DNA from: an uncultured Prevotellaceae bacterium | Lineage (GTDB): Bacteria > Bacteroidota > Bacteroidia > Bacteroidales > Bacteroidaceae | Length of the DNA stretch: 64,000 nt | NCBI GenBank assembly: GCA_902770635.1 | Contig: CACXTX010000030.1 | Coordinates: 2,467 to 66,466, forward strand | Direction of reading: 5' to 3' | Part shown: positions 10,465 through 51,874 of the stretch, in pieces | Layout of the letters: each line of letters begins with the position of its first letter | Numbering within the stretch: position 1 is the stretch's first letter | Made by a program: the position numbers and the translations under genes | The notes under the pieces: generated by a model | Told to the model about the DNA's origin: nothing | The model's input: the letters and a program-made list of their open reading frames with translations, nothing else | Databases searched by the model: none

Positions 10465-11211
10465 CTAGTCAATATGGAAAACGCAGGTAGAAACGTTGTC
10501 AAAGCCTCCTGCCTCAATAGCTGCCTCACAAAGCTGATTAGCCGTCTTGTTGGCTACCATTAATTCCTGTATCTCTAAATCAGTAATCATATCGTTCAGG
10601 CCATCTGAGCAAAGGAGATATGTGTCCCCAGGAAGCACATCGTCAGTAAACTCATAGAAATCAAGATAGGAATCTTTGAAGCCTGCACCAATACAGTTGG
10701 TAATCACATTGGAATGACGTTGCGAACCATCATTTTTTGTCAACGAATGGTCTTCTGACAACTGTGTCAGTTGTCCGTCACGAAGACGATAAAGACGGCT
10801 ATCACCACAGTTCAACCAATAATAGTGTTCACCATAATAAAGAACCCCCACCAAAGTAGTACCCATATCAAACTTGGAGCTATCCATCAGTCCACGGGAA
10901 TTTATCGTCTTATTAATGGAATTAAGCCACTCGACCATCATTTCATTCATTTCACCAGGCGTCAGCCCACGAGGCAAGTCATGGATAAAATACTTGAGAT
11001 TAGAAAGAGTTTCCTCACTTGCAACCTCACCGGCATTATGACCGCCCATTCCATCTGCCAGAGCAATGATAAAACGGTCGGTATTCTCCGTCATGAACTC
11101 GGTCTTATATGCGTCACTTCGCAACAATTTGTCATAAGCCAGCACCATGTCTTCGTTATTACTCCTGACACAACCTATACGGCTGGCTGCTGTTAATACT
11201 ATTCTACTCAT
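10465..11211 (-). CDS. PP2C (PPM) family Ser/Thr protein phosphatase
   Basis: RSNNED, ADGMGGH, GDSR, LCSDGL and GGFDNVS metal-binding motifs. Confidence 0.95.
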   Translation of the reverse strand: MSRIVLTAASRIGCVRSNNEDMVLAYDKLLRSDAYKTEFMTENTDRFIIALADGMGGHNAGEVASEETLSNLKYFIHDLPRGLTPGEMNEMMVEWLNSINKTINSRGLMDSSKFDMGTTLVGVLYYGEHYYWLNCGDSRLYRLRDGQLTQLSEDHSLTKNDGSQRHSNVITNCIGAGFKDSYLDFYEFTDDVLPGDTYLLCSDGLNDMITDLEIQELMVANKTANQLCEAAIEAGGFDNVSTCVFHID

Positions 11212-11215
11212 TTAT

Positions 11216-11806
11216 TTAATTAATACTTACTTGCAAATTAATATTAGCAAGAGTGACGATATCACCACTCTTGAGGGACATTGGAACGTCTGGCTGAACC
11301 TCCCGTTGGTTAAGCTTTGTACCATTGGATGAATGCTTATCAATCACACACCATCCTGTATCTGGCTTATAAATCAGTTGGGCATGTACACCAGAGATGT
11401 ACATATTGCCTTCAAACAATTGCTGGTAGGGTCCTTGACGACGTCCGATAATAGCGCCATTAACACCTACCATACGGATGTCGAGCGTAGGATTATAGAG
11501 GGTAAGAGTAGGAATACCAGACTGGGCAGGTAACTGGGAGCCATCAGCAACTCGATGAGAAGTCGCAACAAAAGGCTCTCTATGGCTGGTTGCCATACCA
11601 ACATAGGACTGGGACACCTGTTGCTGGCGCTGATTGCGTTGTTGCTCCAATTCATTGTAGCTGACCATAAGGCCACCGCAATGAGTACAGCGACGTCCCA
11701 TACCCACACGTCCGCAATTACAGCAGTAAACGAGTTCCTGACCACACTGATCACAATAGCGTGAATCGTCCTCTATCTCTTCTTTACAACTTGGGCATAT
11801 AATCAT
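11216..11806 (-). CDS. Zinc-ribbon + FHA domain protein
   Basis: N-terminal CPSC/CDQC/CCNC/CTHC. C-terminal FHA with conserved GR (IIGRR), SxxH (ISGVHA) and NGT (SSNGT). Confidence 0.9.
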   Translation of the reverse strand: MIICPSCKEEIEDDSRYCDQCGQELVYCCNCGRVGMGRRCTHCGGLMVSYNELEQQRNQRQQQVSQSYVGMATSHREPFVATSHRVADGSQLPAQSGIPTLTLYNPTLDIRMVGVNGAIIGRRQGPYQQLFEGNMYISGVHAQLIYKPDTGWCVIDKHSSNGTKLNQREVQPDVPMSLKSGDIVTLANINLQVSIN

Positions 11807-11808
11807 AG

Positions 11809-14800
11809 TTATTCCTTAATATCTTCTGGCAAAATCAGTTGATAAGTCTCTTGCGTTACCTCCGACGGCGACATCAGGCTGACACGCAATGAGAGTTGTT
11901 GAATCGTTTCATCCAGCAGGTTGCGCATCTCACGAGCATTGCCAAAGTTCTTAGTCTTATTATAAACCATGTGAGCAATGACATCCATAAGTCTGGATTC
12001 TGCTTCTGGCGACAGTTTGTAGTTGTCTTTTGCAGCCATCTTTATGAATATTTCGCCCAGTTCGTCAGCCGTATAGTCATCGATGTGCATCTTATGAGAG
12101 AAGCGACTTGCCAACCCTGGATTGATAGAGAGGAAGGTCTCCATTTCTTCACGATACCCTGCTGCAATAACAACGAACTTACCACGATCGTCTTCCATAC
12201 GTTTCATCAGCGTGTCTATGGCCTCCTTACCATATGGATCATTCTCCGCAGAAAGTGTATATGCCTCGTCAATAAACAGGATGCCACCCATAGCCTTATC
12301 ACACATGTTATTGACTATCTTGGGTGTTTCACCCATGTATTTGCCAACAAGTGTTGCACGACTGGCTTCTATAACGCGACTGGTAGGCAAAATCTCCATA
12401 GACTGAAGTATCTCACCCATTTTACGAGCAACAGAAGTCTTACCCGTTCCAGGATTACCCGTAAGGATAAAGTTCATGGCCATCTGCTGAACCTTACCAG
12501 CACCCAATGCAGCACGTTGTTTCATAAACATGCTCTGAACGGCAAGGCGACGAATCAGATTCTTCACAGAAAGCATGCCGATAAATTCATCGAGTTCGTT
12601 AAGAACCTCGTCAAGAGGACGAATCTTTTCACTCTGCCCCACAGCCAAATCGGCAACGGTAATGCGATACATATCCGCACTGTTGAACGCAGGGTTGTTC
12701 ATCTCCGCAATTAAGCGTTGACTCTGCTTCTCAACGGCCTGATCAAAAATGCGACGTGCCTCACGAGCATTTCCAAAGTTTTTGTCACGACGCAGGTAGA
12801 GTTGCTCAAACTGGCGATGAATAGCTCCACGAGTTTCGTCATCAACAGTAAAGTTCTTGTCTTTGGCGAGATTAATGAATATTTGTGTCAACTCGTCTGG
12901 AGTATAATCCTCGAAATGAATTGTCTGTGTGAAACGACTCTTTAATCCAGGATTCGTATCAATGAAATCATGCATCTGGTCAGTATAACCTGCTACAATA
13001 CAAATAAACTTCCCACGATCATCTTCCAAACGTTTCAACAAAGTATCAATGGCCTCCGAACCAAAACTATCTTGATCATTCGATTTCAAGGTATAGGCCT
13101 CATCTATAAAGAGGACACCACCCATTGCCGAGTCAATGAGCTGATTAGTCTTAATGGCAGTCTGACCAGAATACCCAGCAACAAGTTTTGAACGATCTGC
13201 CTCAACCAACTGACCACGAGAAAGAATACCAAGACTACGGAATACATCAGCCATGATGCGGGCTACAGTGGTTTTACCCGTACCAGGATTGCCCGTAAAG
13301 ACATAATGCTTCCCTTGGAAAGTATTAGTCTCACCACGACGAATTTGCAAATTGAGGAAGGCAGCAAGATTGGAAATCTCTTTCTTGACAGAAGCCAGTC
13401 CCACCATACCATCGAGTTTTGCCAGACATTCGTTATAGTTGACTGCTTTAGGAGCCTCATAAGGAATATCGTCAACGGTTATGGTCATCAGCTGCTCGTC
13501 AGAAAGGGTAGAAATATCAACCTTCTGCAAGCGCTCTGCCTGTTTGGCCACAATCTTATCAAAGAGCTGACGCATGGTACGCCCATTGGCAAAGTCTTTC
13601 TCTCGAGCATTGTATATCTCAGTAATCATCTTGAGCGTCAATTCCCTAGCATCAGGTGCAAAACGGTACTTTTTCTCTTGAGCAAAGACTTCCATAATCT
13701 GATATAGCTGATCAGGTGTATAGTCGTCGATATTTAGGAAATAACTAAAGCGACTGCGGAAGCCAACATTAATACGGAAGAGATTCTCCATCTCCGTTCG
13801 ATAACCTGCGGCTATGACCACAAATTTTCCACGGTCGTCTTCCATACGCTTCATTAATTGCTCCAAAGCCTGAGCACCTTGATTATCACGCTCACCACTC
13901 TGACTAAGAGGTGCTAACGTGTAAGCTTCATCGACAAAGAGAATACCACCCATAGCCTTATCGCAAAGACTGTCAACCACCTTTGGCGTCTCACCCTGGT
14001 ACGGACTAACCATCTTAGAGCGGTCCACCTCAACTACATGTCCACTATCCAGATAACCAATAGACTCTAGGATCTCACCAAGTTTACGAGCTATGGTGGT
14101 CTTGCCTGTACCAGGATTACCAGTGAGAACAATGTGAATACCCATTTTCTGTTGCTCACCTAATCCGCGTTGGGCACGCTCAATATTGTTGTGAACAGTA
14201 AGGGCAATCTCGTGAACGGCCTGTTTAACCTCATCCATACCAATGTAATGGTCGAGATCGCTAAGGATATCCTCTAGAGAACGCTCCTCAGGTACATAGC
14301 CACGGATATCCTTTTCCTCAACCATAGAGGCTGCTGTTCCCCGACTGATGAAAGAGGTAAAGATATCTTCTGCTGTCTTGACAGCCACATGAGCATATCC
14401 AAACGTTTCATCCTTGATTTTCAGTTGATATTGGAAGAGACGTTGCAAACGCCGTTCAGCTTCAGGAGTATAGGCTGAAATTCCATATTTTGTGCGCAAT
14501 TCAAGCTTACAGATTTCGCAGAGTTCCTGAAAACCAGGAACAGGCAATCGGAATGTGTATTTAAATCGGTTCTGAGCAGCAGGGTTAGCAGCCAGAAAAT
14601 CATCAAGACCCTTGGGCAGACCCGCCATGATAACAATGGGGTTCTCATCCCATTTATCCATCTCAACAAACAGTTTATCAAGTGGATTAACTTGGTTGGA
14701 ATAACGATCTGGTAGCAATTTCTGAACATTATCAAAGAAAAGGATACCTCCCCTAGCCTTCTGCACGTTCTCGTCCCACTTATCAACAAAACGCTGATAG

Positions 14801-15120
14801 TCGACAGCATCGACCATAGTAAGCTGGGGTTTCTCTATAATCCTGTATTGATAAAAATAGTCGCGGATGATTTCTGCCAAGGCCGTCTTACCAGTACCTG
14901 TCTCACCAATGATGATGGTATTCACACTCAGACGGACATTAATCACGTCCTTTCGAGTATGCAGATAGGTATAGGTGTCAACAACATTTTTCAGCTGCCT
15001 CTTCACCTCGTCAAGCCCGACCATACGGTCTAGTACATTCTGCGATACAAGTGGCTGACCACAGTACTTACAGAACTTGGCTATCGATCGGTTTTCTTTT
15101 TGACAATGCTCACAAACCAT
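11809..15120 (-). CDS. Zinc-ribbon protein with four tandem CbbX/SpoVK/EccA-type AAA+ modules
   Basis: N-terminal CEHC...CKYC. Walker A GETGTGKT then GNPGTGKT three times. Walker B FFDNV, FVDEAY, FIDEAY, FIDEAY. Lid motifs (F)A/GNxRxxRxxF recur. Confidence 0.9.
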   Translation of the reverse strand: MVCEHCQKENRSIAKFCKYCGQPLVSQNVLDRMVGLDEVKRQLKNVVDTYTYLHTRKDVINVRLSVNTIIIGETGTGKTALAEIIRDYFYQYRIIEKPQLTMVDAVDYQRFVDKWDENVQKARGGILFFDNVQKLLPDRYSNQVNPLDKLFVEMDKWDENPIVIMAGLPKGLDDFLAANPAAQNRFKYTFRLPVPGFQELCEICKLELRTKYGISAYTPEAERRLQRLFQYQLKIKDETFGYAHVAVKTAEDIFTSFISRGTAASMVEEKDIRGYVPEERSLEDILSDLDHYIGMDEVKQAVHEIALTVHNNIERAQRGLGEQQKMGIHIVLTGNPGTGKTTIARKLGEILESIGYLDSGHVVEVDRSKMVSPYQGETPKVVDSLCDKAMGGILFVDEAYTLAPLSQSGERDNQGAQALEQLMKRMEDDRGKFVVIAAGYRTEMENLFRINVGFRSRFSYFLNIDDYTPDQLYQIMEVFAQEKKYRFAPDARELTLKMITEIYNAREKDFANGRTMRQLFDKIVAKQAERLQKVDISTLSDEQLMTITVDDIPYEAPKAVNYNECLAKLDGMVGLASVKKEISNLAAFLNLQIRRGETNTFQGKHYVFTGNPGTGKTTVARIMADVFRSLGILSRGQLVEADRSKLVAGYSGQTAIKTNQLIDSAMGGVLFIDEAYTLKSNDQDSFGSEAIDTLLKRLEDDRGKFICIVAGYTDQMHDFIDTNPGLKSRFTQTIHFEDYTPDELTQIFINLAKDKNFTVDDETRGAIHRQFEQLYLRRDKNFGNAREARRIFDQAVEKQSQRLIAEMNNPAFNSADMYRITVADLAVGQSEKIRPLDEVLNELDEFIGMLSVKNLIRRLAVQSMFMKQRAALGAGKVQQMAMNFILTGNPGTGKTSVARKMGEILQSMEILPTSRVIEASRATLVGKYMGETPKIVNNMCDKAMGGILFIDEAYTLSAENDPYGKEAIDTLMKRMEDDRGKFVVIAAGYREEMETFLSINPGLASRFSHKMHIDDYTADELGEIFIKMAAKDNYKLSPEAESRLMDVIAHMVYNKTKNFGNAREMRNLLDETIQQLSLRVSLMSPSEVTQETYQLILPEDIKE

Positions 15121-15124
15121 ATTC

Positions 15125-18079
15125 TTATTCTACGTCTTTCTGTATTTGTTTTATAACCCCAGATGGATTAATCTTAACGCTTCCGAAATCCGGGTGACGA
15201 TTCAAGAGTTTCGGACTAACAACTATCATTTCCAATACCAGCAAGGCAAATAGCATACTCCATAATATATAGTGAAGTACGGACTCACCACTGATGGATC
15301 GAATCTGGTTCGTCACGTCATCAAGCATATTGAACTTGGATCCCTTAAACTTAAACGACTTTTGCTTGAAAGTATAGTAAAGAGGTTCAAGGAGTTCTGA
15401 CTTGATATCGTCTTCCATCACTTCATTTACCAACTGATTGTCACCACGTGAATCTCCACGGAAATCTGTCAGATGACATATCAACATATATACTAACGTA
15501 ATAACGATAACGGCTGGAACCAACATGGTGGGATAGGTCGTATTGACAAACTTCAACACCAATACCGTAATATAGGACGAGAAGAAGCCTAATAGTCCCC
15601 ACAGACAGGAAAGAACAAAGCCATATCCGCGAAAGAATGCTCGCATACCTACAATGATGGCGGTCATACCACCAAGAGGCAGGGAGATGGTAAGGAGAGT
15701 GTGGCTAAAAACATAATCGCGATTGTTGATGCCTAACAAAGCAACCATAGCAATCCACAAGGCACTAAGCACATAGTAGGTAAGACGCCACGTATTCTCC
15801 TTAGCACGAGCACGATGATAATTCGTACGTACCTCCTTGTATTTTCTGGCAGTTTCCTCCTTGGCCGTGACATAACGCTTATAATATCTCTGATTATGGT
15901 CTATCTCACCAACGTCAAGTAGCCATTTTTCCAAAGTGCGTTCATAGCTATATGCCTCGTTGAAATGCTCATTGGGGTCTTCATGGAAAAACACAGACAT
16001 CCACTGGCTCAATGCACCACGCTTAATCTCAGGTATCAGAGCAGGACGATGAGCCAACTTGTCGAAATCACGTCCATCTCGCAACTCCAAGCCATCCTGA
16101 AGGACATAGGTAGGAAGAGCACCCAGAATACGGCAGAAACGATAAGCTGCCGTACGAAGATCATAGGCACTCAGTCGTTCACGGTTTTCCTCACTGCGTA
16201 AATCGAAGCATGCACGACACTGGCTAAGTGGCTCAAACCAGCCATGTAATTGAGCAAAATAGGCAAAGCGACCATCTGAACTTGAATAATCGCTAATCAC
16301 CTCAGCAAACTCTTCGTCTGTTAAATGTTGCCATTGCCTCATCTGTTCGCAAAGAATCTCACCCACCTTCAATGGTGTATCAGCTTCTCGAAGATCGTAA
16401 GCAGCATCACGGTCTATGTTATAAAGAACCTTATAACCCAAAGAACGGGTAGGTTTCTTACCTTGAGTCATGATACGAAGAGCTTCGCAAGCCATCTTAT
16501 CCTCATGACTATACATCCAAGACAGCAAACGCCCATCACACAGACTGGTCCACTCGTCCTCTGAACAGTCCTCATAACCAAACGAGTGTACTATCTCTGT
16601 AAGATTACTGGAAGGATATTTAGGCAAGAAAGGTATTTCGCTGTCTATCTCGTAGAGGGTTTTCAAGATGGCTATACGCATCTCGTATGGACTTTCTGAA
16701 TTGAAATATCCACGCAGTCGGTTTATATCTACCTTGGAATGTGACTCAATATACAGGAACAAAGAATCGTTAGGATTTCGTAATGCCAAGATATACTCTT
16801 CCTGATAGCTAAGCACCGAAATAGCAACACTGTGGATATCTTCGCAAAGGTTGCCATGAAGATCCTTATAGGGATAAGTAGGCTCCATCGCATAAACAGC
16901 AGCCATCAAGCCAGCTTTCTGGTCAACAGGATAACGGTTGGTCACAATATCCTTCACCGCAGAACTCAGTTTGATATTACCACTTTGCTCCAACCAACTG
17001 GCTATACGTCCATTGTATAAGTAACTGATAGCCAGTCGCTCATTATCAAGCAACAAGGGAATAAGCTCATGAACATTATCAGCCACAAGATTCTGCTCAG
17101 GGTCAACTACGAAACTGCGATATTTCAACAAAGGAGAAGAAACATCTACCTTGACATCCTCACCCAAGAACCAACGCTCTACCTCGTCGTACCCCCAACG
17201 GCTCTGAGGATTAACGGCTGTCAATCCCTGGACTATCATCTTCACACGGTCGGGCAGTTCATTGATACGAGGAAGACGTCCTTCGTTCTTCTTACGCATC
17301 ATGACACGTTCATTTTGGCTCAAAGGATTCTCACCCAGCCATAGCGCCATCAGCGTAATACCAAGAGAATAGAAGTCAACAGATGGAGTAATCTCGACCT
17401 CTCCATCAATCACATCTGTGTACATCTCAGGAGCAGCAAAAACCGGTGTTCGTGCCTGAGTGGTTCGATGCAAACGTTCTTCTCCCTCCATGATACTAGA
17501 AATGCCGAAATCGCCCAGAACAACCTCCTTATGGTCCTTATCACGGAAGAAATAGTTGCTAGGCTTAATATCCTTATGGATGATATTATTGTTGTGGCAA
17601 TAAGCCAAAGCAGCAGCGGCTTGAAGGGCTATACGACGGAATTGGACAAAATTACCGTTAAGGTCGTATTCTGCCAACGTACCACCACGGAGGTATTCCA
17701 TCAGTTCATAATCGCGATTCTTACCGTCAACATAGGTCTTGCCATAATCAACAACACGAACCAGCATCTCCATATTGAAGTTTTGGACAATACGCATCAG
17801 CTGTTTCTTAATCGTAAAATTGGGATAGTATATTTTCAATACCATCTCACCTTCTTCACCCTGAACCAGGTAAATCTGGGCTTCACCGGAATTATCACTA
17901 AGACACTTGATGCCACGATAGATGCGACCTTTCAGTATGAAATCGCCATCACCTGCTTGAGAGTTATCAGCAACACTACCTGGTCTAACCGTTGCATCGA
18001 CACTACGTTTAGAGATTGTCGGTGCATCACCTACTCGGATGGTTGCACCCATATCTGGTTTTCTTATGGTCTCGTCCAT
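15125..18079 (-). CDS. Hanks-type Ser/Thr protein kinase with helical middle region and C-terminal transmembrane helices
   Basis: VLK, HKDIKPSN, DFG, APE and SVDFYSLG motifs; about five hydrophobic segments near the C-terminus. Confidence 0.93.
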   Translation of the reverse strand: MDETIRKPDMGATIRVGDAPTISKRSVDATVRPGSVADNSQAGDGDFILKGRIYRGIKCLSDNSGEAQIYLVQGEEGEMVLKIYYPNFTIKKQLMRIVQNFNMEMLVRVVDYGKTYVDGKNRDYELMEYLRGGTLAEYDLNGNFVQFRRIALQAAAALAYCHNNNIIHKDIKPSNYFFRDKDHKEVVLGDFGISSIMEGEERLHRTTQARTPVFAAPEMYTDVIDGEVEITPSVDFYSLGITLMALWLGENPLSQNERVMMRKKNEGRLPRINELPDRVKMIVQGLTAVNPQSRWGYDEVERWFLGEDVKVDVSSPLLKYRSFVVDPEQNLVADNVHELIPLLLDNERLAISYLYNGRIASWLEQSGNIKLSSAVKDIVTNRYPVDQKAGLMAAVYAMEPTYPYKDLHGNLCEDIHSVAISVLSYQEEYILALRNPNDSLFLYIESHSKVDINRLRGYFNSESPYEMRIAILKTLYEIDSEIPFLPKYPSSNLTEIVHSFGYEDCSEDEWTSLCDGRLLSWMYSHEDKMACEALRIMTQGKKPTRSLGYKVLYNIDRDAAYDLREADTPLKVGEILCEQMRQWQHLTDEEFAEVISDYSSSDGRFAYFAQLHGWFEPLSQCRACFDLRSEENRERLSAYDLRTAAYRFCRILGALPTYVLQDGLELRDGRDFDKLAHRPALIPEIKRGALSQWMSVFFHEDPNEHFNEAYSYERTLEKWLLDVGEIDHNQRYYKRYVTAKEETARKYKEVRTNYHRARAKENTWRLTYYVLSALWIAMVALLGINNRDYVFSHTLLTISLPLGGMTAIIVGMRAFFRGYGFVLSCLWGLLGFFSSYITVLVLKFVNTTYPTMLVPAVIVITLVYMLICHLTDFRGDSRGDNQLVNEVMEDDIKSELLEPLYYTFKQKSFKFKGSKFNMLDDVTNQIRSISGESVLHYILWSMLFALLVLEMIVVSPKLLNRHPDFGSVKINPSGVIKQIQKDVE

Positions 18080-18084
18080 AAATA

Positions 18085-19023
18085 TTACTTGTCGTCCTTA
18101 ATTTCTTCCCTACTGTTCTTTCCTAACACAACCCACTTACCACCCAGATGGGGCTTTGCACATCCACAAGGGCTGCTGTGCATGGCATGCTTGTAATTGC
18201 AGACCCACGCCAAACGTACCCCTTGTGGCTTGCAGGCCATAGCATAGTTACGAGCCTTTACTGGCGATGATGTGGGAACGACAGCCAATTTGTCTAGAAT
18301 AGCCGACAACATTTTGATCTTGACCATCTTTTGCTCCTCCAATTCTTCACGAGTCATACGTTTCGACTCTACCTTGGGAATAACAGGGATTTCCACACCC
18401 TCATCCTTGGCCAAGAGAGTCAAGACACGCTCACGAAGCCTTGCATTCATCTGTTCTCGTACTATATCACGCTCAGAATTATAGGGAAGTGCATTTTCCA
18501 ATTTGGAGTAATCGCGAACAATTTCTAGCAGCTCCTGATAGTCAGGATTCAGTTGCAGTTGCTTCACCAAAAAACGGGCTTCATCTGTCAAGGCAGTACC
18601 ACACTTCTTACAGAAAGAAAATTCGTTCAGCGTGTGACAGGTAGGGCATACGATGCCTCCACGAGGGCTTCCGCAATCGGGGCAATAAGGTTCAATACCC
18701 GAAAGATGAGCTCCACAGAAAGAACATACATCTTTTTTGATATAGTGATGACATGACTCACAGAAATCTGCGTCTGGATCTATCTCTGCGCCACAATGTG
18801 GACAAATCATTTTACTAATAGGCTGACCGCATCGGGCACAAAACATAGCCTCAAGTTCATTGACAGCACCACAATAAGGGCAAGGACGCCCTGCTGCCTG
18901 AGCTTGTTTCTGAGCCATTTTCATCTGCATCGGCCCCTGCTCCAGGCGTATGCCACGCTCAAACATCTGCTGAGGTCTCAGTGTCCTTTGAGTTTTCTCG
19001 TTATCTGGGTTGTTATCAAACAT
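18085..19023 (-). CDS. Multi (double) zinc-ribbon protein with eight CxxC motifs
   Basis: CPYC, CARC, CPHC, CESC, CSFC, CPDC, CPTC, CKKC. Start moved to ATG 19023 because a TAACTTTG promoter box lies at 19044-19051, inside the ORF-track extension. Confidence 0.8.
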   Translation of the reverse strand: MFDNNPDNEKTQRTLRPQQMFERGIRLEQGPMQMKMAQKQAQAAGRPCPYCGAVNELEAMFCARCGQPISKMICPHCGAEIDPDADFCESCHHYIKKDVCSFCGAHLSGIEPYCPDCGSPRGGIVCPTCHTLNEFSFCKKCGTALTDEARFLVKQLQLNPDYQELLEIVRDYSKLENALPYNSERDIVREQMNARLRERVLTLLAKDEGVEIPVIPKVESKRMTREELEEQKMVKIKMLSAILDKLAVVPTSSPVKARNYAMACKPQGVRLAWVCNYKHAMHSSPCGCAKPHLGGKWVVLGKNSREEIKDDK

Positions 19024-19043
19024 AGTAGTAAGTATTATTGATG

Positions 19044-19051
19044 CAAAGTTA
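19044..19051 (-). promoter_or_regulatory. Bacteroidota primary-sigma -7 box (TAACTTTG) for the kinase/AAA operon
   Basis: Exact TAnnTTTG match 20 nt upstream of the first start codon and just downstream of the pepO terminator. Confidence 0.7.
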
Positions 19052-19073
19052 ACCATTTTTTCATAAACACACA

Positions 19074-19112
19074 AAAAACCGCCGTAAATTTTACATTTAC
19101 GACGGCATTTTT
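19074..19112 (-). terminator. Probable intrinsic terminator after pepO
   Basis: GCCGT(C)...ACGACGGC / AAAAACCGCCGTAAAT stem flanked by A/T runs, about 20 nt after the stop codon. Confidence 0.55.
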
Positions 19113-23135: not shown

Positions 23136-23876
23136 CTATTTGAAAACGACCTTACTACGACAGCATTCTGTCCCATCGGTGCGGACTATGCGTACACAAT
23201 ATTCCGTATCGCCAGTCTGTTCACAATAGAAAGAAAGCTGGTCACCGGCATGGGCTTCAGCGACATAGGCAATCTCAAAGCGCTTAATCTGGTGGGCACG
23301 ATACCACTCCATGTCCCAGAGGTCAAGCACATGTTCGATATACTTCACGCTGTTGATGTGGCCATTGATGTCAACATCATTATAATAGGTGTCAATGGTG
23401 CGCACCAACTTGGCCTCGTCACTCATCTTCACTCGCCCACCCTTTTCTATCGGACATTCCTTATCGCTGACTATCCAGTTGTTGATGGCTCCATTGTCTA
23501 TGGCAAAGAGATCTGTTGGCTGACGAGTCTCTGTATCAATCATCGCCCATATAGAACGTCCATAGCCATAGGTGTGGCCATCTTCTCCCACAACGGCAAA
23601 GTTACGGGAAGTGAAAAAGCGCATGGCATTCTCCACCCATGTTTCCACACAGAACTTGGTGTATTGCATGGGCATCTCGTCCATCTCAATAGCCAGACGG
23701 GAAAGCACCCACGAGCGTTGAATAGTCATGAGGTATTTCATGCCAAAGCCACGGTCCGACGAATGGAAGTCGGCAGCATTCAGCATGTGGTTGCCCAAGT
23801 GGCCCATAAAGAGTCGTCCACTGAAATCACAATGGAACGGCTCAGCCATAAAGGCGTATTTTCCTACTTTATCCAT
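23136..23876 (-). CDS. Acyl-ACP thioesterase
   Basis: DVDINGHINSVKY motif and WVLSRL; typical position in the Bacteroidales ilv operon. Confidence 0.88.
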   Translation of the reverse strand: MDKVGKYAFMAEPFHCDFSGRLFMGHLGNHMLNAADFHSSDRGFGMKYLMTIQRSWVLSRLAIEMDEMPMQYTKFCVETWVENAMRFFTSRNFAVVGEDGHTYGYGRSIWAMIDTETRQPTDLFAIDNGAINNWIVSDKECPIEKGGRVKMSDEAKLVRTIDTYYNDVDINGHINSVKYIEHVLDLWDMEWYRAHQIKRFEIAYVAEAHAGDQLSFYCEQTGDTEYCVRIVRTDGTECCRSKVVFK

Positions 23877-24411
23877 TCATTTCCTCCCTCTGTTCCAAGA
23901 ACTTGCTTACTTCCTCCTGCTTACCACGGGTAACGGCAATACGTCCACTACGAGTGTACTGGAATACACAGCCAAACTCATCCAAAGCACGATATAGGGA
24001 AATAATCTGCTCTGTTACACCATGCTTCATCACGATGGTATAGGTTGGGTTCACCTCCGTAATACTGGCATCAAAACGACGGATGGTGCGCGAAATCTCA
24101 GGATTTGCCAGCACTTTGTTGGTATTCAGTTTGTAAAGACCTGTCTCACGGATAAACAACTGTTCGTCGGTGAAGTAATTGGCCTTTATCACATCTATCT
24201 TCTTCTCTATCTGCTTGGTAATCTTCACTATCTGGTCCTCGTCGCTCCATGCGGTGATGGTGTATTTGTGTACACCAGGAATGCTGGAAGCCGACACGTT
24301 CAGACTTTCAATGTTGACCTGGCGACGGGTGAACACCGCAGTAATCTGATTCAGAATACCAGCCACGTTCTCCGAATAAACCAACAGCGTATATAGTTTC
24401 TTTTCTTCCAT
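23869..24411 (-). CDS. ilvN: Acetolactate synthase small (regulatory) subunit
   Basis: ACT domain ENVAGILNQITAVFTRRQVNIESLNV and C-terminal TRSGRIAV. Start set to MEEKK at 24411. Confidence 0.92.
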   Translation of the reverse strand: MEEKKLYTLLVYSENVAGILNQITAVFTRRQVNIESLNVSASSIPGVHKYTITAWSDEDQIVKITKQIEKKIDVIKANYFTDEQLFIRETGLYKLNTNKVLANPEISRTIRRFDASITEVNPTYTIVMKHGVTEQIISLYRALDEFGCVFQYTRSGRIAVTRGKQEEVSKFLEQREEMNG

Positions 24412-24455
24412 TATAATTATCAATTATCCATTATCAATTAGCAATTAGCAAAGCG

Positions 24456-26130
24456 CTAAATCTCCAGCATCATATCGCTGACATTCATGCCTGGAGGAGT
24501 CATGGGCAGCACGTCATCGTCCTCCTTGATGGCACACTCCAAGAGGAATGGACCTTCTGTCTTCAGCATCTTCTCAACAGCAGCAGCCAAGTCCTTACGG
24601 TCTGTAACAGCCTCATAACCAATTCCATAGGCTTTGGCTATCAGTTCGTAACAAGGATTCATCATCTTGGTAAACGACTTGCGGCGCATCCAGAACATAT
24701 CCTGCCACTGGCGCACATTTCCCAAGTAATGGTTGTTCATCAGAATCATCTTCACGGGTGACTGTTGCTCCATGATGGTACCCAGTTCCTCGATACACAT
24801 CTGGAAACCACCGTCGCCCATGAAACAGCAAACGGTACGGTCGGTGGCAAAGGTGGCTCCAATAGCAGCGGGCAAGCCATAACCCATGGTGCCCAGACCT
24901 CCACTGGTACAGATGCTACGCTTCTGGTGATATTTGAAATAACGGGTGGCAAACAACTGGTTCTGTCCAACATCCGTCACGAGCACAGTACCTTCCGGAG
25001 CCTGCTCGGCAACAGCATTGACCACCTCGCCCATCAACAGCGGACCCTCCTTAGGATGGATGGCAGGCTCTATGACCTTTTCGCGCTCCTTCTGATCCAG
25101 TTCCTTGAACGAATCGCGCCACTCCTGATGGTCAGCCTTATCAAGCAAAGCGGTAAGGGCTGGCAACGACTGTTTACAGTCTGCCACAACAGCCACATCG
25201 GTCTTTACGTTCTTGTCAATCTCACTCTTGTCGATATCCAAATGTATAATCTTGGCCTGCTTGGCGTAGGTCTTCGTATTGCCTGTCACACGGTCAGAGA
25301 AGCGCATGCCAATGGCTATCAGCACGTCACATTCCTGTTCCTTCAGGTTAACGGCATAGTTGCCATGCATACCCAGCATACCCACATTCAGCGGATGGTT
25401 GGAAGGCAGGGCACTCAGTCCCAACATGGTACGACCGGCAGGGATATCGGCTTTCTCCAAGAATGCCTTCAGTTCCTCCTGGGCATTTCCCAGTTCCACG
25501 CCCTGTCCTACTAAGGCCAGAGGGCGCTTGGCATTGTTGATCAGTTCGGCGGCCTGCTTCACCAAATCCTCGTCCAGTTTGGGACTGGCAACGTATGAAC
25601 GTACAAAATCCACCTTCTTAGGCTCCCACTCTACCTCTTCCACCTGTGCATTACGGGGGAAGTCGAGTACGACAGGACCAGGACGGCCACTACGGGCAAT
25701 ATAGAAGGCACGGCTGACAGCCCATGCTATATCCTCGGCATGGCGAATCTGGTAGCTCCATTTGGAGATAGGCTGTGCCACACCCACAAGGTCAACCTCC
25801 TGGAAGGCATCGGTACCCAACGCATTGATAGCCACCTGACCTGCAATAACCACCATAGGTGTTGAGTCCAGCATGGCATCGGCCACACCTGTCAGCGTAT
25901 TGGTAGCACCAGGTCCGCTGGTGACCAGTGCGACACCTACCTCGCCACTGACGCGGGCATAGCCCTCAGCAGCATGTACGGCACCCTGTTCGTGGCGCAC
26001 CAATATATGGTCAAAACATTTCTTTTCACCTCATGATAGAGCCACCGGGATAGCCAAAGATGGTCTTTACCCCTTCTGCCTGCAAGGCCCGCATCAGCGC
26101 TTTCGATCCTGTTATTCTATCCTTCAACAT
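24456..26130 (-). pseudogene. ilvB: Acetolactate synthase large subunit, frameshifted near the 5' end (real or assembly artefact)
   Basis: ATG 26130 gives MLKDRITGSKALMRALQAEGVKTIFGYPGGSIMR then TGA at 26026-26028. The remainder (GEKKCFDHILVRHEQGAVHAAEGYAR...) is in another frame that is closed by TGA at 26031-26033. Confidence 0.8.
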
Positions 26131-26157
26131 AAATTGTCAATGTTCAATGTTCAATCT

Positions 26158-27963
26158 TCAATCTTCAATGATTCTCACTCCTCCCTTATCGGCTGATGAA
26201 ACACTCTGAGCGTATGCACGCAGGGCCTTTGACACCTCACGGTTGCGCTTCAAGGGCTGCTGGGGACGAGCCTCCAGCTCTGCATCGCTGAGTTTCACGT
26301 TAATCTTACGATTGGGAATATCTATCTCTATGATGTCGCCATCCTTAATCTTTCCTATATTACCACCAGCAGCTGCCTCCGGTGAGATATGTCCAATGCT
26401 CAAGCCACTGGTACCACCTGAGAAACGGCCATCGGTAATCAGGGCACACTCCTTACCCATGTGCATGCTCTTGATATAAGAGGTTGGGTAAAGCATCTCC
26501 TGCATACCAGGACCACCCTTCGGACCCTCGTGGGTTATGACCACACAGTCGCCCTTCTTCACTTTGCCACCCAGGATTCCCTCGCAGGCATCTTCCTGAG
26601 AGTCGAAGACAACGGCAGGACCTTCAAAGTGCCACAGGCTCTCATCGACACCGGCAGTCTTCACTACGCATCCGTCTTGGGCAATATTGCCAAACAGCAC
26701 AGCCAGTCCGCCATCCTTGGTGTAGGCATGTTCCAGGTCGCGGATACAGCCATTGGCACGGTCGGTATCCAGTGTTCCCCACTCTTCTGACTGGGAACCC
26801 ATCTTCGTGGAGAAGCGGTTGCCTGGAGCTGTCTGATAGATGCGGTTGGCTTCTGCATCCACAGCGCCATCTACAATGCTGTATTTCTTCATGGCCTCAC
26901 CCAGCGTCATACCATCCACGCGTGGGGCAGAGCCATCAATCAGCCCGCCTTTGGCCAGTTCGTTCATAATACCCAGGATGCCACCGGCACGTCCACACTC
27001 CTGCACACTATACTTCTGGGTGTTGGGTGCCAACTTGCAGAGACATGGGGTCTTACGGCTCAGGGCGTCGATATCCTTCATGGTGAAGTCGGCACCAGCC
27101 TCCTGAGCCACAGCCAGCAGGTGAAGCACGGTATTGGTCGAGCCACCCATGGCGATGTCCAGCGTCATGGCGTTCAGGAAAGCCTGGCGGGTGGCAATGT
27201 TACGAGGCAGCACGCTCTCGTCGCCATCCTCATAGTAGGCAAAGGCATTCTTCACCACCTGGCGGGCAGCAGCCTTGAACAGCTCTACACGATTGGTATG
27301 GGTGGCCAGAATGGTTCCGTTGCCTGGGAGTGAGAGTCCGATAGCCTCTGTCAGCGAGTTCATCGAATTGGCAGTAAACATACCTGAACAGCTTCCGCAA
27401 CCAGGACAGGCACAACCTTCTATCTCCCTCATTTCCTCATCGGTCACCGAGGGGTCTGCACCCTTAATCATGGCCGTAATCAGGTCGGCATTCTCACCAC
27501 GCCACTTGCCAGCCTCCATCGGGCCACCTGAGCAGAACACCGTGGGGATGTTCAGGCGCATCGAGGCCATCAGCATGCCTGGAGTCACCTTGTCACAGTT
27601 CGAGATGCAAATCATGGCATCGGCCTTATGGGCATTCACCATATATTCCACACTATCGGCTATGATGTCACGCGAGGGCAGGCTGTACAGCATACCGTCG
27701 TGTCCCATCGCAATACCGTCGTCAATGGCTATGGTATTGAACTCAGCCGCATAGCAGCCCATCTTCTCTATCTCTTCGCGTACTATCTGACCTATCTCAT
27801 GCAGATGAGTATGACCAGGAACAAACTGGGTGAACGAGTTGACAATGGCAATAATAGGCTTGCCAAACTGCTCGTGTTTCATACCTGTAGCTACCCAGAG
27901 CGCCCGCGCTCCAGCCATTCTTCTACCTTCTGTGCATACCGCACTACGCAATGGATGTTTCAT
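26158..27963 (-). CDS. ilvD: Dihydroxy-acid dehydratase
   Basis: [29 protein letters not shown] and [11 protein letters not shown] motifs. Confidence 0.97.
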
Positions 27964-43531: not shown

Positions 43532-44326
43532 TTACAGCCCGCGGGCCTTCCAAATCTTGTCTTTGGCAGCATTAATTTCCTGGAACTTCTTCTCAGCAGC
43601 CCTGCGGATGTCCTCGCCCAGGGCTGCTACTTTGTCTGGATGGTGCTCAAGAGCCAAACGACGATATGCCTTTTTCACCTCATCGTCAGAAGCATTCGGA
43701 CTGACACCCAACACCTTATAGGCACTATCCAGGTCGTCCTTGCCCAGTCCCAGCATCGAATCTACTTCATCTACAGACATCTGCATCCACTGGGCACACT
43801 CCTTCATGGCCGTCACCTCGGTAGCATCCACACGTCCGTCGGCCTGCGAAATCATGACCAGGAAGTTCAGCAACTGCAAACGCTGGGCATATTCCATGTT
43901 CATGGCTATCTGCTGACAACATTGCATAACGGTTTGGCGGAACTGATAACTTCCAACCCTTTTCTGCTCGTCAAACAGTCGGCGAAGAATCTCCTCGCCT
44001 TGCTGCTGAGCCACATTGCCGAAGTTCTGGCGCAACATGTTACGCACCAGTTCCATCTCAGAGTGCATCACCTTGCCGTCAGCCCTGATGATGTAGGATG
44101 CCAGCACCAGCATCGAGAACAAAAAGCTGTTCCGTTGTCCCTGATAGGCACGCTGCTGAGCCTGTTGTTGTCCAAAGGGAGATTCAAATGTCCCCTGTGT
44201 CTCAGGCGTATTCACCGCATCGAGCACAGAATCAAGAAAACCACCCAGCACAATACCAGCCAGTGCACCCAACGGTCCACCACTCATAAAGCCGAGAACA
44301 CCACCAATCCACTTTCCTAATGCCAT
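43532..44326 (-). CDS. djlA: DjlA-like co-chaperone (TM + TerB-like + J domain)
   Basis: N-terminal [11 protein letters not shown] segment, IIRADGKV TerB-like region, J domain with HHPDK. Confidence 0.88.
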
Positions 44327-48750: not shown

Positions 48751-51700
48751 TTAATTGTTTAATACGATTTCACGTTCTTCTGGTGTTAAGCCATAGAGGT
48801 CGAACACCTTGTTGTCTATCTCGTTGTCTGTAGCCTTTATCTGCTCTGAGAGTTCTTGGCAGGCTTGGCGATATTGGTTAAAGTAGTCTTCCCACTCGTC
48901 TTGCTGAACCAGTGTGAGTTTTATCTTCTGTTTCTTCAGTTCTGCCACGAAGCCCTTGAAGTCTAACTGGTCAAATGACTGCAAAGCTGTTGTTATTTTG
49001 ATGCTCTCAAAGTTCTCACTCAGACGATGGAGGAAACGAGTGCGTTTCTCTTGAAGCTGGGAGTTGAGGGAAAGCATCGTATCGGCGAGTGTAATGAAAG
49101 GTAGTTGGGATTCCTTAGGAATAACCTTTATTGGAAACAGCCTTAAATCATTTAGGATAATCTTGGGAAATAGTTTTCTCTCAGCTTTTGCTGTATTCTT
49201 TTTAAAATAGAAAGAGAGCAAAGAACTATTTAGAAGTACAAGAATATATTTAAGACTAACATTCTGTCCTTCTCGCTTTACTACAGCAATATTACTGCGA
49301 TTATATAAATAGGTATCTTCTGTATAGACAGCATTTAAGCAATGAGGAAACTCACTTGTAATCTCGCGAACAATTATCTTTTCATCAGTAAATAAGTTTA
49401 ATGTCCTTGGGGCTGCAAGATGATTCCCATACCAGAGCCATTGCCCTGTCCAATTAACAGCGTATCTCAACACATTGCTTCCATCAAGGTACTTATACGT
49501 GTCTTCATTAAACTGATAAGTATAATCATAGGGGCGAGACTTCACATCTTCTGCACTTTGCTTTGGTATTCCTTTGCCTTTTTCGTAAGCTTGAAGTCCT
49601 GCTTTTACACAAGCTACTTCATCAAGGTCTCGACATCCCTCTCTTAATTTCTCAGTTAATGATTCACTTAAGTCATCTTGAAATACAAGAAACTCATAAC
49701 CGGGATTATGCGAAAAAACATTTTGCTTTTTGTAATGAAGAAAATCAAATGAACTACTTTTTTCGTCTGTTTTTAAGATTTCAATTGTATGGTTTGTGTC
49801 TGCAACACTTTTCTTCATAATGGAAATAACAGTTTCGACATTTGCATCTTCAAATGATTTTCCATACAAATTAACAATTTTATCCACAGAAGCCCTTTCA
49901 ATGAAGATTTTACGTAAGGCTTCTCCAGAATATGTCATTAGCCATGAGTTTGGGACGATAAGACCAATAATGCCATCCTTTTTCGCGAGCAGTAATGATT
50001 GCTCCATGAAGATAATATATGTGTTTACTTGGTACTTAGCAGACTCATAGACTTGTGAATAATAGGCTTTATCTTCTTCAGAGACTTTTTCTCTTGCAAA
50101 TACATACGGCGGATTACCAATCACCACATCGAAGCCTCCTTTTTCGAATACCTTGGGGAATTGCTCTTGCCAGTTGAAGGCTTTTTCGCCAGCAATAGCA
50201 GGATCGCTAATCAGCGAGTTTCCACATTTGATATTCTCATTGAGTGAGTTCAGCTTACGATGTGGTTTGGCTGTACGTAGCCACAGCGCTAACTGGGCTA
50301 TCTCAACACTTTCTTCATTGATGTCAACACCATAGAGGTTATGCTCTAAGATGCTGTTCTCCACATCCTGGAATACAATAGCAGAACCTGCTACCTTTGC
50401 CTCCATCTCATCTATCAGTTTATGCTCTGCCATCAAAAACTGCAAGGCAGCATTTAGGAAAGCTCCACTACCACAGGCAGGATCGAGAATCGTAATCTGG
50501 AGCAACCAATCACGATATTGTTGCAACTGATCCAATAAACGCTTCTTGGTTTGCAGCTGGCGACGTTGATCTGAGAAATATTCATCCTCAACGATATTTA
50601 GCTGCTGTTTATTTTCAGCACAAAGACGCCCAACGGTATTCTCCACAATGTATTTTGTGATATACTGAGGCGTATAGAACACACCGTCCTGCTTACGCTT
50701 CGAGGTTTGGGGAGTCTCGCCACTATTGATTTGCTGAGTAACCTCTTCAATCTCTGAAAGCGAGTTCTCAAAGATATGCCCCAAGATGTTCACATCCACA
50801 TCGCTCTCAAAGTCGTATTCTGACAGTTTGCGAGTGTGTGCAACCAAAAGGTCGTCGCTAATCTTGATATTGTCCAGTACTTCATCAGGCTTAAATAGTC
50901 CACCGTTATAGGCAAATATCTCATACTTCTTGCCCTGATAGCCAGTGTTCATGTAGCCGAAGTACTTCTTTACTCTGTCGTAGAAAGGCCGATATTCGTC
51001 CATCTCCTTGAGGCTCTCCCACTGGTCAATAATCTGCACCATCGAATTGGGAGGCAGAAGTCCACAATCCTCAGCAAAGAAGATAAACAGCAGACGGTCA
51101 AGCAGTTTCTGGGTCTTCTTAAAAAGAAGCAGTTGCCATTCTTTTTCATCCTTGTCTTCTGGAGTTGGATTTAGTTTCAAGATGTTGGCAAAGAGTACTC
51201 GCTTGAACTGCGAATAGTCTTTATAAAGTGCCTTGGTAATCTGGTCTTCACTCGACACAGACTCCTGTTTCATCTGCAAAGCCACACCTCGCTCAACCTG
51301 CTTCCAAGCGAGGCAGAGAAATAGTTCTCGGAAGTCTTCTTCCGCCAGATGAAACAGGTTCCATTCGCGATATTCTACAGCATTGTCTATATAGAGACGA
51401 AGTTTCTCGAAATTAGAAATAACAACATAGCGTGCATCAGGATGCTGGCTTTTGTAGTTGAAGGCCTGCGGCTCCACTTTAGAAAGGTCTGTGGTCTTAT
51501 GGTCTTTCAGCTCAATCACACCAATCACCTTACCGTCTTTCTGAATAGCACCATCAGCTTTCTTCGAGTTTGTCTCATTCTTTTTCTCTGTAATCAAGTT
51601 GAAGTTAGGCGAAGGGTTTAGCGTATAGCCTAACACCTTCACAAACAATTCGCGAAGGAAACCTTCCTGGAATTGTTCTTCTTTCGATTGCTGAATATTG

Positions 51701-51813
51701 GCTTGTATCTGTGCATCAAGAAAATAAGCCTGAAATTGTTTCCAAGCCACAATGACAATTTCTTCATCAATCAGACCCAAGTATTTCTTGAGAATAGTTT
51801 TCTGAAGTAGCAT
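48751..51813 (-). CDS. Type IIG (Eco57I/TaqI-like) restriction endonuclease-N6-adenine methyltransferase fusion
   Basis: N-terminal PD-(D/E)xK-like ADGAI...IELK, GVFYTP, LDPACGSGAFL (motif I), GNPPY (motif IV), C-terminal TRD-like region. Start set to MLLQK at 51813. Confidence 0.88.
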   Translation of the reverse strand: MLLQKTILKKYLGLIDEEIVIVAWKQFQAYFLDAQIQANIQQSKEEQFQEGFLRELFVKVLGYTLNPSPNFNLITEKKNETNSKKADGAIQKDGKVIGVIELKDHKTTDLSKVEPQAFNYKSQHPDARYVVISNFEKLRLYIDNAVEYREWNLFHLAEEDFRELFLCLAWKQVERGVALQMKQESVSSEDQITKALYKDYSQFKRVLFANILKLNPTPEDKDEKEWQLLLFKKTQKLLDRLLFIFFAEDCGLLPPNSMVQIIDQWESLKEMDEYRPFYDRVKKYFGYMNTGYQGKKYEIFAYNGGLFKPDEVLDNIKISDDLLVAHTRKLSEYDFESDVDVNILGHIFENSLSEIEEVTQQINSGETPQTSKRKQDGVFYTPQYITKYIVENTVGRLCAENKQQLNIVEDEYFSDQRRQLQTKKRLLDQLQQYRDWLLQITILDPACGSGAFLNAALQFLMAEHKLIDEMEAKVAGSAIVFQDVENSILEHNLYGVDINEESVEIAQLALWLRTAKPHRKLNSLNENIKCGNSLISDPAIAGEKAFNWQEQFPKVFEKGGFDVVIGNPPYVFAREKVSEEDKAYYSQVYESAKYQVNTYIIFMEQSLLLAKKDGIIGLIVPNSWLMTYSGEALRKIFIERASVDKIVNLYGKSFEDANVETVISIMKKSVADTNHTIEILKTDEKSSSFDFLHYKKQNVFSHNPGYEFLVFQDDLSESLTEKLREGCRDLDEVACVKAGLQAYEKGKGIPKQSAEDVKSRPYDYTYQFNEDTYKYLDGSNVLRYAVNWTGQWLWYGNHLAAPRTLNLFTDEKIIVREITSEFPHCLNAVYTEDTYLYNRSNIAVVKREGQNVSLKYILVLLNSSLLSFYFKKNTAKAERKLFPKIILNDLRLFPIKVIPKESQLPFITLADTMLSLNSQLQEKRTRFLHRLSENFESIKITTALQSFDQLDFKGFVAELKKQKIKLTLVQQDEWEDYFNQYRQACQELSEQIKATDNEIDNKVFDLYGLTPEEREIVLNN

Positions 51814-51874
51814 AGTAATATTCGGTTTTAGCGCACTCACTGACTTATCGGGCTTTGTAACGGACAAAACCAAC

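Follow-up and report, generated by a model that had tools for sequence, protein, structure and literature searches.

A predicted multi-module AAA+ ATPase with a degenerate first module, encoded together with a Ser/Thr kinase, FHA protein and PP2C phosphatase in rumen Prevotella

Results

A five-gene cassette encoding a four-module AAA+ ATPase

The window analyzed here is a 64,000-nucleotide stretch of DNA from an uncultured Prevotellaceae bacterium (GenBank assembly GCA_902770635.1, contig CACXTX010000030.1, positions 2,467 to 66,466). It encodes a 1103-residue ATPase that consists of an N-terminal zinc ribbon followed by four tandem AAA+ modules. The ATPase gene is the third of five same-strand genes (10465..19106, minus), which are separated by intergenic gaps of 2-5 nt and together form the cassette listed below. 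Orthologs of the ATPase were collected by scanning one genome per GTDB species; this gave 239 stretches encoding relatives, of which the best 80 were analyzed, and counts of 81 refer to the window protein plus these 80 orthologs.

18085..19074, minus: gene 1, soluble protein with four zinc ribbons (Pfam DZR, 4e-22; eight CxxC motifs; no transmembrane segments)
15125..18079, minus: gene 2, Hanks-type Ser/Thr kinase, 984 aa (Pfam Pkinase, 9.8e-30)
11809..15120, minus: gene 3, the ATPase of 1103 aa, with four AAA+ modules after a zinc ribbon (open reading frame list, Pfam and 80 full-length orthologs)
11216..11806, minus: gene 4, protein of 196 aa with a double zinc ribbon, a variable linker rich in S, T and Q, and an FHA domain (Pfam FHA, 8.3e-13; DZR)
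10465..11211, minus: gene 5, PP2C-type Ser/Thr phosphatase, 248 aa (Pfam PP2C_2)
19078..19106, minus: terminator-like hairpin of 12 pairs plus a T-run, immediately following the M13 peptidase gene and ahead of the cassette (consensus scan only)

The kinase gene lies 4 nt from the ATPase gene, which is followed after 2 nt by the FHA gene. In the kinase, the HKDIKPSN, DFG and APE motifs are intact, and five transmembrane-like segments occupy the C-terminal part (residues 766-949). The FHA protein has the phosphothreonine-binding residues GR, SxxH and NGT. The phosphatase retains the metal-binding motifs DGMGG, SDGL and GGFDN and matches the NCBIfam model Stp1_PP2C at 1.2e-45, under the model cut-off. 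Judged by these motifs, the kinase, FHA protein and phosphatase look catalytically competent. Gene 1 probably starts at an internal ATG. About 460 residues of the kinase (~300-760), between the kinase domain and the transmembrane-like segments, have no Pfam assignment, and the Cys/His-rich C-terminal half of the gene 1 product is also without assignment; either region could be a sensor or a client-binding part. The sequence ATSHR, which occurs twice in the FHA linker (residues 71-85), was considered as a phospho-acceptor and rejected, being absent in 75 of 81 orthologs.

The strong terminator-like hairpin likely marks the 5' boundary of the cassette transcription unit. A sigma-70 promoter scan performed no better on the locus than on shuffled sequences, and its model does not cover Bacteroidota promoters. 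Rfam and tRNA scans of the window gave no matches.

Modules 2-4 of the ATPase and their clade

Pfam recognizes four AAA domains in the ATPase (PF00004, E = 3e-64) and three AAA_lid_6 domains, and the motif scan divides the protein as follows.

15046..15120, minus: zinc ribbon, residues 1-25, motif CxxCxxxNRxxAx[FY]CxxCG
14266..15045, minus: module 1, residues 26-285, degenerate AAA+ module, P-loop intact, catalytic Glu absent
14884..14907, minus: Walker A of module 1, GETGTGKT, invariant in 81/81
14722..14745, minus: Walker B of module 1, ILFFDNVQ, with Asp130-Asn131 in place of Asp-Glu; DNVQ invariant in 81/81
13435..14265, minus: module 2, residues 286-562, complete catalytic set (motif scan)
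12607..13434, minus: module 3, residues 563-838, complete catalytic set (motif scan)
11809..12606, minus: module 4, residues 839-1103 plus the stop codon, complete catalytic set (motif scan)

The principal motifs, with residue positions, are these.

Module 1: Walker A GETGTGKT (72), Walker B ILFFDNVQ (126-133), Arg motif NRF (184)
Module 2: Walker A GNPGTGKT (334), Walker B ILFVDEAY (393), Arg motif SRFSY (456)
Module 3: Walker A GNPGTGKT (610), Walker B VLFIDEAY (669), Arg motif SRFTQ (728)
Module 4: Walker A GNPGTGKT (888), Walker B ILFIDEAY (947), Arg motif SRFSH (1005)

The zinc ribbon has its CxxC pairs at residues 3-6 and 17-20, and C3, C6, N10, A14, C17, C20 and G21 are invariant in the ortholog alignment (A1). 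Modules 2-4 share 40-47% pairwise identity, and each is 23-25% identical to module 1, a similarity between modules that exceeds chance by far. The sensor-1, second region of homology (SRH), sensor-2 and pore-loop sequences are AAGY, NVGFRSRF, FANGR and YQGET in module 2, VAGY, NPGLKSRF, FGNAR and YSGQT in module 3, and AAGY, NPGLASRF, FGNAR and YMGET in module 4, with a YxGxT pore-loop pattern common to all three. Modules 2-4 thus have the full set of catalytic and pore-loop features.

The clade termed SpoVK-EccA-like is marked by a sensor-1 GY, by conservation of an Asn upstream of the arginine finger and by retention of the sensor-2 Arg (PMC11513918). The ATPase has four copies of the classical AAA+ core (PF00004), each with a Walker A and a Walker B motif. 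Both the Gly and the Tyr of sensor-1 are found in modules 2-4 and are invariant in alignment A1, and the sensor-2 Arg is likewise present in these three modules; module 1 has lost both marks. The SRH Asn occurs in all four modules. Four residues after it stands Arg in module 2, Lys in module 3, Ala in module 4 and Gln in module 1, and at N+6 all four modules have an invariant Arg, within SRF or NRF. By these marks modules 2-4 are assigned to the SpoVK/CbbX/EccA clade. The nearest solved structures are EccA1 (9LUR, E = 2.5e-51) and CbbX (3SYL and 3ZUH, 2.7e-48), and the best single-module Foldseek match is CbbX, with a TM of 0.71-0.76 at 39% identity. No solved multi-module chain of the clade was found among the structure matches.

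Module 1 as a putative pseudo-ATPase

The first module retains the P-loop and the Asp of Walker B, and its NPAAQNRF stretch preserves both the Asn upstream of the arginine finger and the Arg of the SRH. It has exchanged the catalytic Glu for Asn, the sensor-1 Tyr for Leu (AGL) and the sensor-2 Arg for His (FGYAH), and the pore loop is gone. Its Walker B reads ILFFDNVQ in 79 of the 81 Prevotella sequences and LLFFDNVQ in the other two; the Arg of its NRF motif and all three DEAY boxes of modules 2-4 are invariant across the same set. Mean column conservation in module 1 (0.87) nearly equals that of modules 2-4 (0.88-0.91), and purifying selection on it is therefore almost as strong. AlphaFold gives module 1 an alpha/beta core plus a helical lid; Pfam finds no AAA_lid_6 match in it.

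The preliminary description of this DNA, made from its letters alone, had listed four Walker A motifs, DEAY boxes and SRFSY, SRFTQ and SRFSH in modules 2-4, and FFDNVQ in module 1, every one of which was recovered by the motif scan. It had further proposed that module 1 probably binds ATP and does not hydrolyze it, a proposal that would have been undermined by a poorly conserved Asn. Since the Asn, the P-loop and the preceding Asp are invariant in 81/81 sequences and the sensor-2 Arg and pore loop are gone, the proposal holds up, and we infer that module 1 binds nucleotide without hydrolysis.

Conservation and transcription of the cassette in Prevotella

All 80 orthologs align from residue 1 to residues 1099-1103 of 1103, at 78-95% identity, and come from rumen or gut Prevotella/Prevotellaceae, two of them labeled Bacteroidales. 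The genes for the kinase, the ATPase and the FHA protein are syntenic at 80/80 of these loci and the PP2C gene at 79/80, and the DZR zinc-ribbon gene is found at all 78 loci having enough flanking sequence. In the window the cassette is flanked by genes for an M13 peptidase and an ABC-F protein and by ilv genes on one side, and by metA and a U32 peptidase gene on the other; metA recurs at 78 of the 80 loci and the M13 peptidase gene at 72. The ATPase is about as well conserved as MetA (79-96% identity). This distribution gives the cassette a core-genome character, its position being fixed by the M13 peptidase gene at one end and metA at the other.

The cassette is covered by contigs assembled from four metatranscriptomes of rumen or sheep gut. 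The kinase/ATPase junction is spanned by some of them (X3 record 23, X2 record 14) and the ATPase/FHA junction by others (X4 record 26, X3 record 20), and the cassette is apparently transcribed.

Module number and the first module in the wider subfamily

The initial homolog search gave only proteins at least 94% identical to the ATPase, and diversity was therefore taken from 1.84 billion representatives of clusters at 50% identity; the search yielded 23,673 matches at E <= 1e-3, and the stricter limit of E <= 1e-30 gave 11,194. Modules were counted in the best 150 of the 23,673 with separate hidden Markov models (HMMs) for modules like the first and for active modules; a regular-expression count missed degenerate modules, and the HMM count was used instead. 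The ranking of the best 150 favors long proteins and similarity to the four-module query, and the following counts are accordingly not population frequencies.

2 modules: 2 representatives
3 modules: 80 representatives
4 modules: 52 representatives
5 modules: 13 representatives
6 modules: 3 representatives
8 modules: 1 representative

The preliminary description had regarded four linked modules as an unusual architecture. Four-module chains instead make up dozens of distinct 50% clusters and, by this count, are not unusual among the best 150. Four-module proteins thus turn out to be common; no sign that any has been characterized was found, and the full-text literature search returned no description of this cassette nor of multi-module CbbX-type chains. 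In the source databases the relatives are named just 'AAA family ATPase' or 'SpoVK/Ycf46/Vps4 family AAA+-type ATPase'. The same description had called hexamers of one- to three-module chains established for this family, which is overstated: the solved relatives found are the single-module CbbX and EccA1 only.

The design seen in the window, a zinc ribbon and a degenerate first module followed by 2-7 further modules, recurs in 44 of the best 150 representatives, and 43 of these share the zinc-ribbon motif. With the window protein added, the 45 members have three modules in total in 18 cases, four in 19, five in 6, six in 1 and eight in 1. In 43 of the N-terminal units the second Walker B position is most commonly Asn (21), Glu is found in only ~4, and the rest have mostly His, Lys, Ser, Ala or another residue, so that ~39/43 first modules are in a non-Glu state. 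Their sensor-1 reads GL, not GY, and the sensor-2 Arg is mostly lost. Because the Asn is invariant in Prevotella and the commonest residue in the wider subfamily, module 1 can be regarded as an ancient pseudo-ATPase, and the dead first module as an ancient and constant part of the subfamily. Nucleotide binding by module 1 seems to be kept in Prevotella and not everywhere in the subfamily. The preliminary suggestion that module 1 and the zinc ribbon have a regulatory or recruiting role is plausible: this unit stays constant while the number of active modules varies.

Relatives whose gene neighborhoods were compared with the window are listed here.

P0123, 4 modules: 58% identical, Bacteroides sp.; cassette plus a second kinase
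P0121, 8 modules: cassette
P0122, 5 modules: cassette
P0126, 3 modules: cassette, PP2C missing at that position
P0142, 4 modules: cassette, gene order rearranged
P0131, 6 modules: cassette, beside Mfa2-type fimbrial genes
P0145, 4 modules: DZR, FHA and PP2C; called genes without a Pfam kinase match
P0151, 3 modules: cassette

The gene neighborhoods of P0124 and P0147, two multi-module relatives that have no zinc ribbon, are unrelated. The 835-residue P0126 is orthologous to module 1 (59%), module 3 (68%) and module 4 (66%) of the window protein and is without module 2; its locus (L084), from a related member of the Bacteroidales, occupies the same chromosomal position, adjoining metA and the U32 peptidase gene; the system exists there as a natural deletion variant. 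At the other extreme, P0122 (1400 aa, L083) and P0121 (2233 aa, L082) have module 1 followed by alternating modules of the module 2-like and module 3-like types. Within P0121, module 3 matches module 5 at 79% identity and module 4 matches module 6 at 72%, and the final module has lost its Walker A motif. The pattern in these two proteins indicates expansion through recent tandem duplication of two-module units. The subfamily spans 3 to 8 modules, single modules having been lost and two-module units duplicated, and a whole live module can evidently come or go while the system persists. The protein is better described as a member of an uncharacterized subfamily of SpoVK/CbbX/EccA-clade AAA+ proteins tied to a Ser/Thr kinase, FHA and PP2C switch.

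Ring assembly

The AlphaFold model of the full chain has a mean predicted local distance difference test score (pLDDT) of 85 and a predicted template modeling score (pTM) of 0.51, which gives no preference between the pseudo-hexamer and the stacked rings suggested in the preliminary description. Two-module Foldseek matches to Drg1, Rix7 and Cdc48 superpose at a root-mean-square deviation of ~8 Å, and they do not tell stacked from side-by-side arrangements. The number of active modules is 2, 3 or 6 in 38/45 subfamily members, whereas the total number of modules is 3 or 6 in just 19/45; if hexamers are assumed, these counts favor a position of module 1 outside the ring. The simplest model, speculative and again conditional on a hexamer, is that two chains of this ATPase form a 3+3 ring with module 1 outside.

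Other features of the window

Between about 44000 and 52000 the GC content falls to 0.39-0.43, compared with ~0.48-0.52 in the flanks. This stretch encodes a 1040-residue type IIG restriction-modification enzyme resembling MmeI (48751..51873), along with a DUF2442 protein and several small open reading frames without a Pfam match, and it is probably a small acquired defense islet. A 264-residue protein with a TerB domain and a C-terminal DnaJ (J) domain is encoded at 43532..44326, minus. The branched-chain amino acid block (23869..27963, minus) comprises an ilvD-like dehydratase gene and the genes for the large and small subunits of acetolactate synthase. The open reading frame of the large subunit starts at TTG and is missing the first ~43 positions of the TPP_enzyme_N profile; because this start cuts the profile, the true start probably lies further upstream.

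Discussion

What might a chain of linked AAA+ modules do beside a membrane kinase, an FHA protein and a PP2C phosphatase? This gene context is the strongest functional clue to the ATPase, and it was overlooked by the preliminary description. The characterized members of the SpoVK/CbbX/EccA clade are dedicated chaperones with narrow clients: CbbX serves Rubisco, SpoVK serves MurG, and EccA serves type VII secretion system (T7SS) substrates (PMC11513918). In the H1 type VI secretion system (T6SS) of Pseudomonas, the kinase PpkA phosphorylates Fha1 and the phosphatase PppA reverses this modification (PMC6213207). Because the chaperones of the clade have narrow clients, and in view of the PpkA/Fha1/PppA logic, we lean, without great confidence, toward the ATPase being a dedicated protein remodeler within the cassette that is gated by threonine phosphorylation. 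The membrane kinase would sense an envelope or membrane signal and phosphorylate a Thr on a cassette partner or on the client; the FHA protein would read the phosphothreonine and recruit or gate the ATPase; modules 2-4 would supply the mechanical work, remodeling a specific client near the membrane; and the PP2C phosphatase would reset the switch. Module 1 and the zinc ribbon would form a fixed scaffold or adaptor, a docking unit, and the SRH Arg of module 1 could complete an adjacent ATP site. Zinc ribbons are found on three of the five cassette proteins and, speculatively, could provide a shared docking surface.

Several observations weigh against a phosphorylation-gated remodeler or some part of it. 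The analysis brought up no client, phospho-site or signal, and the repeated ATSHR of the FHA linker, the sole candidate acceptor motif noticed, is not conserved. The P0126 locus has no PP2C gene between the FHA gene and metA, and P0126 itself has no counterpart of module 2. Roughly 14 of the 43 wider first modules depart from the GxxxxGK[ST] P-loop, so nucleotide binding by module 1 is not universally required. The evidence for co-transcription consists of assembled, strandless metatranscriptome contigs, in which DNA carry-over is possible. As for the ring, the pTM of 0.51 backs no particular packing of the modules, and active-module counts of 4 (six representatives) and 5 (one representative) occur, neither of which divides six.

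Other explanations must be set beside the gated remodeler. The possibility that the four-module frame is an artefact of repeat mis-assembly or fusion of adjacent genes was considered since internal repeats can collapse or expand in assemblies. No support for it was found, and it can practically be dismissed: at 40-47% protein identity the modules are too divergent to mis-assemble, full-length orthologs are encoded in 80 independent genomes, and the RNA contigs are co-linear over the module boundaries. A reading of module 1 as a nucleotide-free structural spacer, which would make the protein effectively a three-module ATPase with a large N-terminal domain, is less easily set aside. Neither the sensor-1 Tyr nor the sensor-2 Arg nor the pore loop survives in module 1, Pfam recognizes no lid in it, and about a third of the first modules in the wider subfamily have a non-canonical P-loop. 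However, the invariance of GETGTGKT and of the Walker B Asp in all 81 Prevotella sequences is hard to explain without binding of nucleotide or Mg, and the Glu-to-Asn exchange is a conservative one of the type that stops hydrolysis and keeps binding, if the E-to-Q trap mutation is a guide. We consider a mere spacer unlikely, the least so among these alternatives.

The two remaining alternatives assign the cassette a different role, and the genes around it speak against both. In an anti-phage or conflict system the kinase would sense infection, with the multi-module AAA+ protein as sensor or effector. PADLOC and NCBIfam searches give domain-level matches to mad6, PD-T4-6, IetA and TRIP13, and the multi-module relatives without a zinc ribbon (P0124, P0147) have lipase or JAB/ThiF genes as neighbors, as is typical of conflict systems. 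These matches are, however, to generic kinase and AAA domains and fall far under the cut-offs (IteA 71 against 510 bits, MAD6 74 against 460); the FHA and PP2C proteins have no match in PADLOC-DB v2, which holds no system-specific match for the cassette. The cassette's fixed place amid housekeeping genes, shared by at least 72 of 80 species, its MetA-like conservation and the absence of adjacent mobile-element genes make a defense role improbable. A secretion chaperone, EccA- or ClpV-like, serving a T7SS, T6SS or type IX secretion system apparatus under Thr-phosphorylation control would fit the summed score of 707 bits over the four modules with TIGR03922 (EccA), the weak match of the FHA protein to the T6SS TagH FHA model, and the kinase/FHA/PP2C trio itself, which follows T6SS regulatory logic (PMC6213207). 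But no apparatus genes lie within ~10 kb on either side, nor on the related contigs examined, the TPR domain of EccA is absent, and the ClpV model (TIGR03345) reaches 42.5 bits against a cut-off of 885. A secretion role is therefore as hard to credit as a defensive one.

A bolder extension of the gated remodeler is that the number of active modules sets the oligomer, as three chains of two, two chains of three or one chain of six, in phosphorylation-gated rings that are partly or wholly single-chain. Module 1 and the zinc ribbon would lie outside the ring as a dock for the FHA/kinase switch, and such proteins would be the prokaryotic equivalent of the linked rings of dynein or midasin, controlling a core envelope process in Prevotella and other Bacteroidota. 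The active-module counts (2, 3 or 6 in 38/45 members) point in this direction, but the sample is skewed by score ranking and members with 4 or 5 active modules do not fit. Taken as a whole this is decidedly unlikely, a little more so than a mere spacer.

The mechanism of AAA+ proteins is mostly known from homohexamers, and the roles of individual subunits have been probed through artificial linked constructs. Natural linked chains with a fixed dead module and two to six live ones would offer a ready system for studying the number and order of active sites per ring. Across at least 80 Prevotella species the cassette equals a biosynthetic enzyme in conservation; it is covered by rumen metatranscriptome contigs and has an ATPase annotated only as 'AAA family ATPase', and for these reasons it is probably an unrecognized core regulatory module of a dominant rumen genus. 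It would also be among the few Ser/Thr kinase circuits of the Bacteroidota with an obvious output enzyme.

Comparison with known systems

CbbX shares with the ATPase modules the GY sensor-1, NPGxxSRF, the sensor-2 Arg and AAA_lid_6. Unlike the ATPase, CbbX is a single-module homohexamer that is encoded with Rubisco genes and acts on red-type Rubisco, whereas the ATPase has four modules and a zinc ribbon and is found in fermentative rumen Prevotella in a kinase/FHA/PP2C context. There are no Rubisco genes in the surrounding 20 kb, and the 629 bits obtained with the CbbX model TIGR02880 are a sum over four stretches, so that the protein does not classify as CbbX. The top NCBIfam score belongs to the SpoVK model TIGR02881 (781 bits), and its equivalog cut-off is passed because the four module scores add up. 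SpoVK is of the same clade and offers the concept of a dedicated chaperone for one envelope-related client; it is a Bacillus sporulation AAA+ protein that promotes MurG function and is found only in sporulating Bacillota (PMC11513918). SpoVK has one module and a short beta-rich N-terminal domain, unlike the four modules and zinc ribbon of this Bacteroidota protein, and with a Prevotella host and a zinc ribbon at the N-terminus the ATPase is not a SpoVK. EccA1 of the ESX-1 T7SS, also of the same clade, is the closest solved sequence. EccA proteins differ in having an N-terminal TPR/beta-helix domain, a single AAA module and a location in ESX loci; the ATPase has no TPR by Pfam and no ESX/T7SS genes nearby, and is not an EccA.

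The closest likeness in circuitry is to the H1-T6SS, with its membrane Hanks kinase, FHA scaffold, PP2C reset and AAA+ output, and as in that pathway the Hanks kinase, PP2C and FHA genes are encoded together here. The recruitment of ClpV1 in the Pseudomonas aeruginosa H1-T6SS was reportedly described by Mougous et al. in 2007. ClpV1 is a Clp/Hsp100 two-ring protein and not a CbbX-type multi-module chain. The cassette differs further in that its partners bear zinc ribbons, it includes an extra multi-zinc-ribbon protein, and T6SS structural and core genes are absent from the locus.

In chain architecture, the ATPase is reminiscent of dynein, midasin/Rea1 and RNF213, in which six modules in one chain close one ring, and of ClpX, which has been engineered into covalently linked trimers and hexamers. 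Like dynein, midasin and RNF213 it has several AAA+ modules per chain, some of them degenerate and non-hydrolyzing, and its relatives reach six to eight modules. Unlike the single-chain six-module rings, the window protein has four modules, of another clade, and its relatives have anywhere from 3 to 8 copies.

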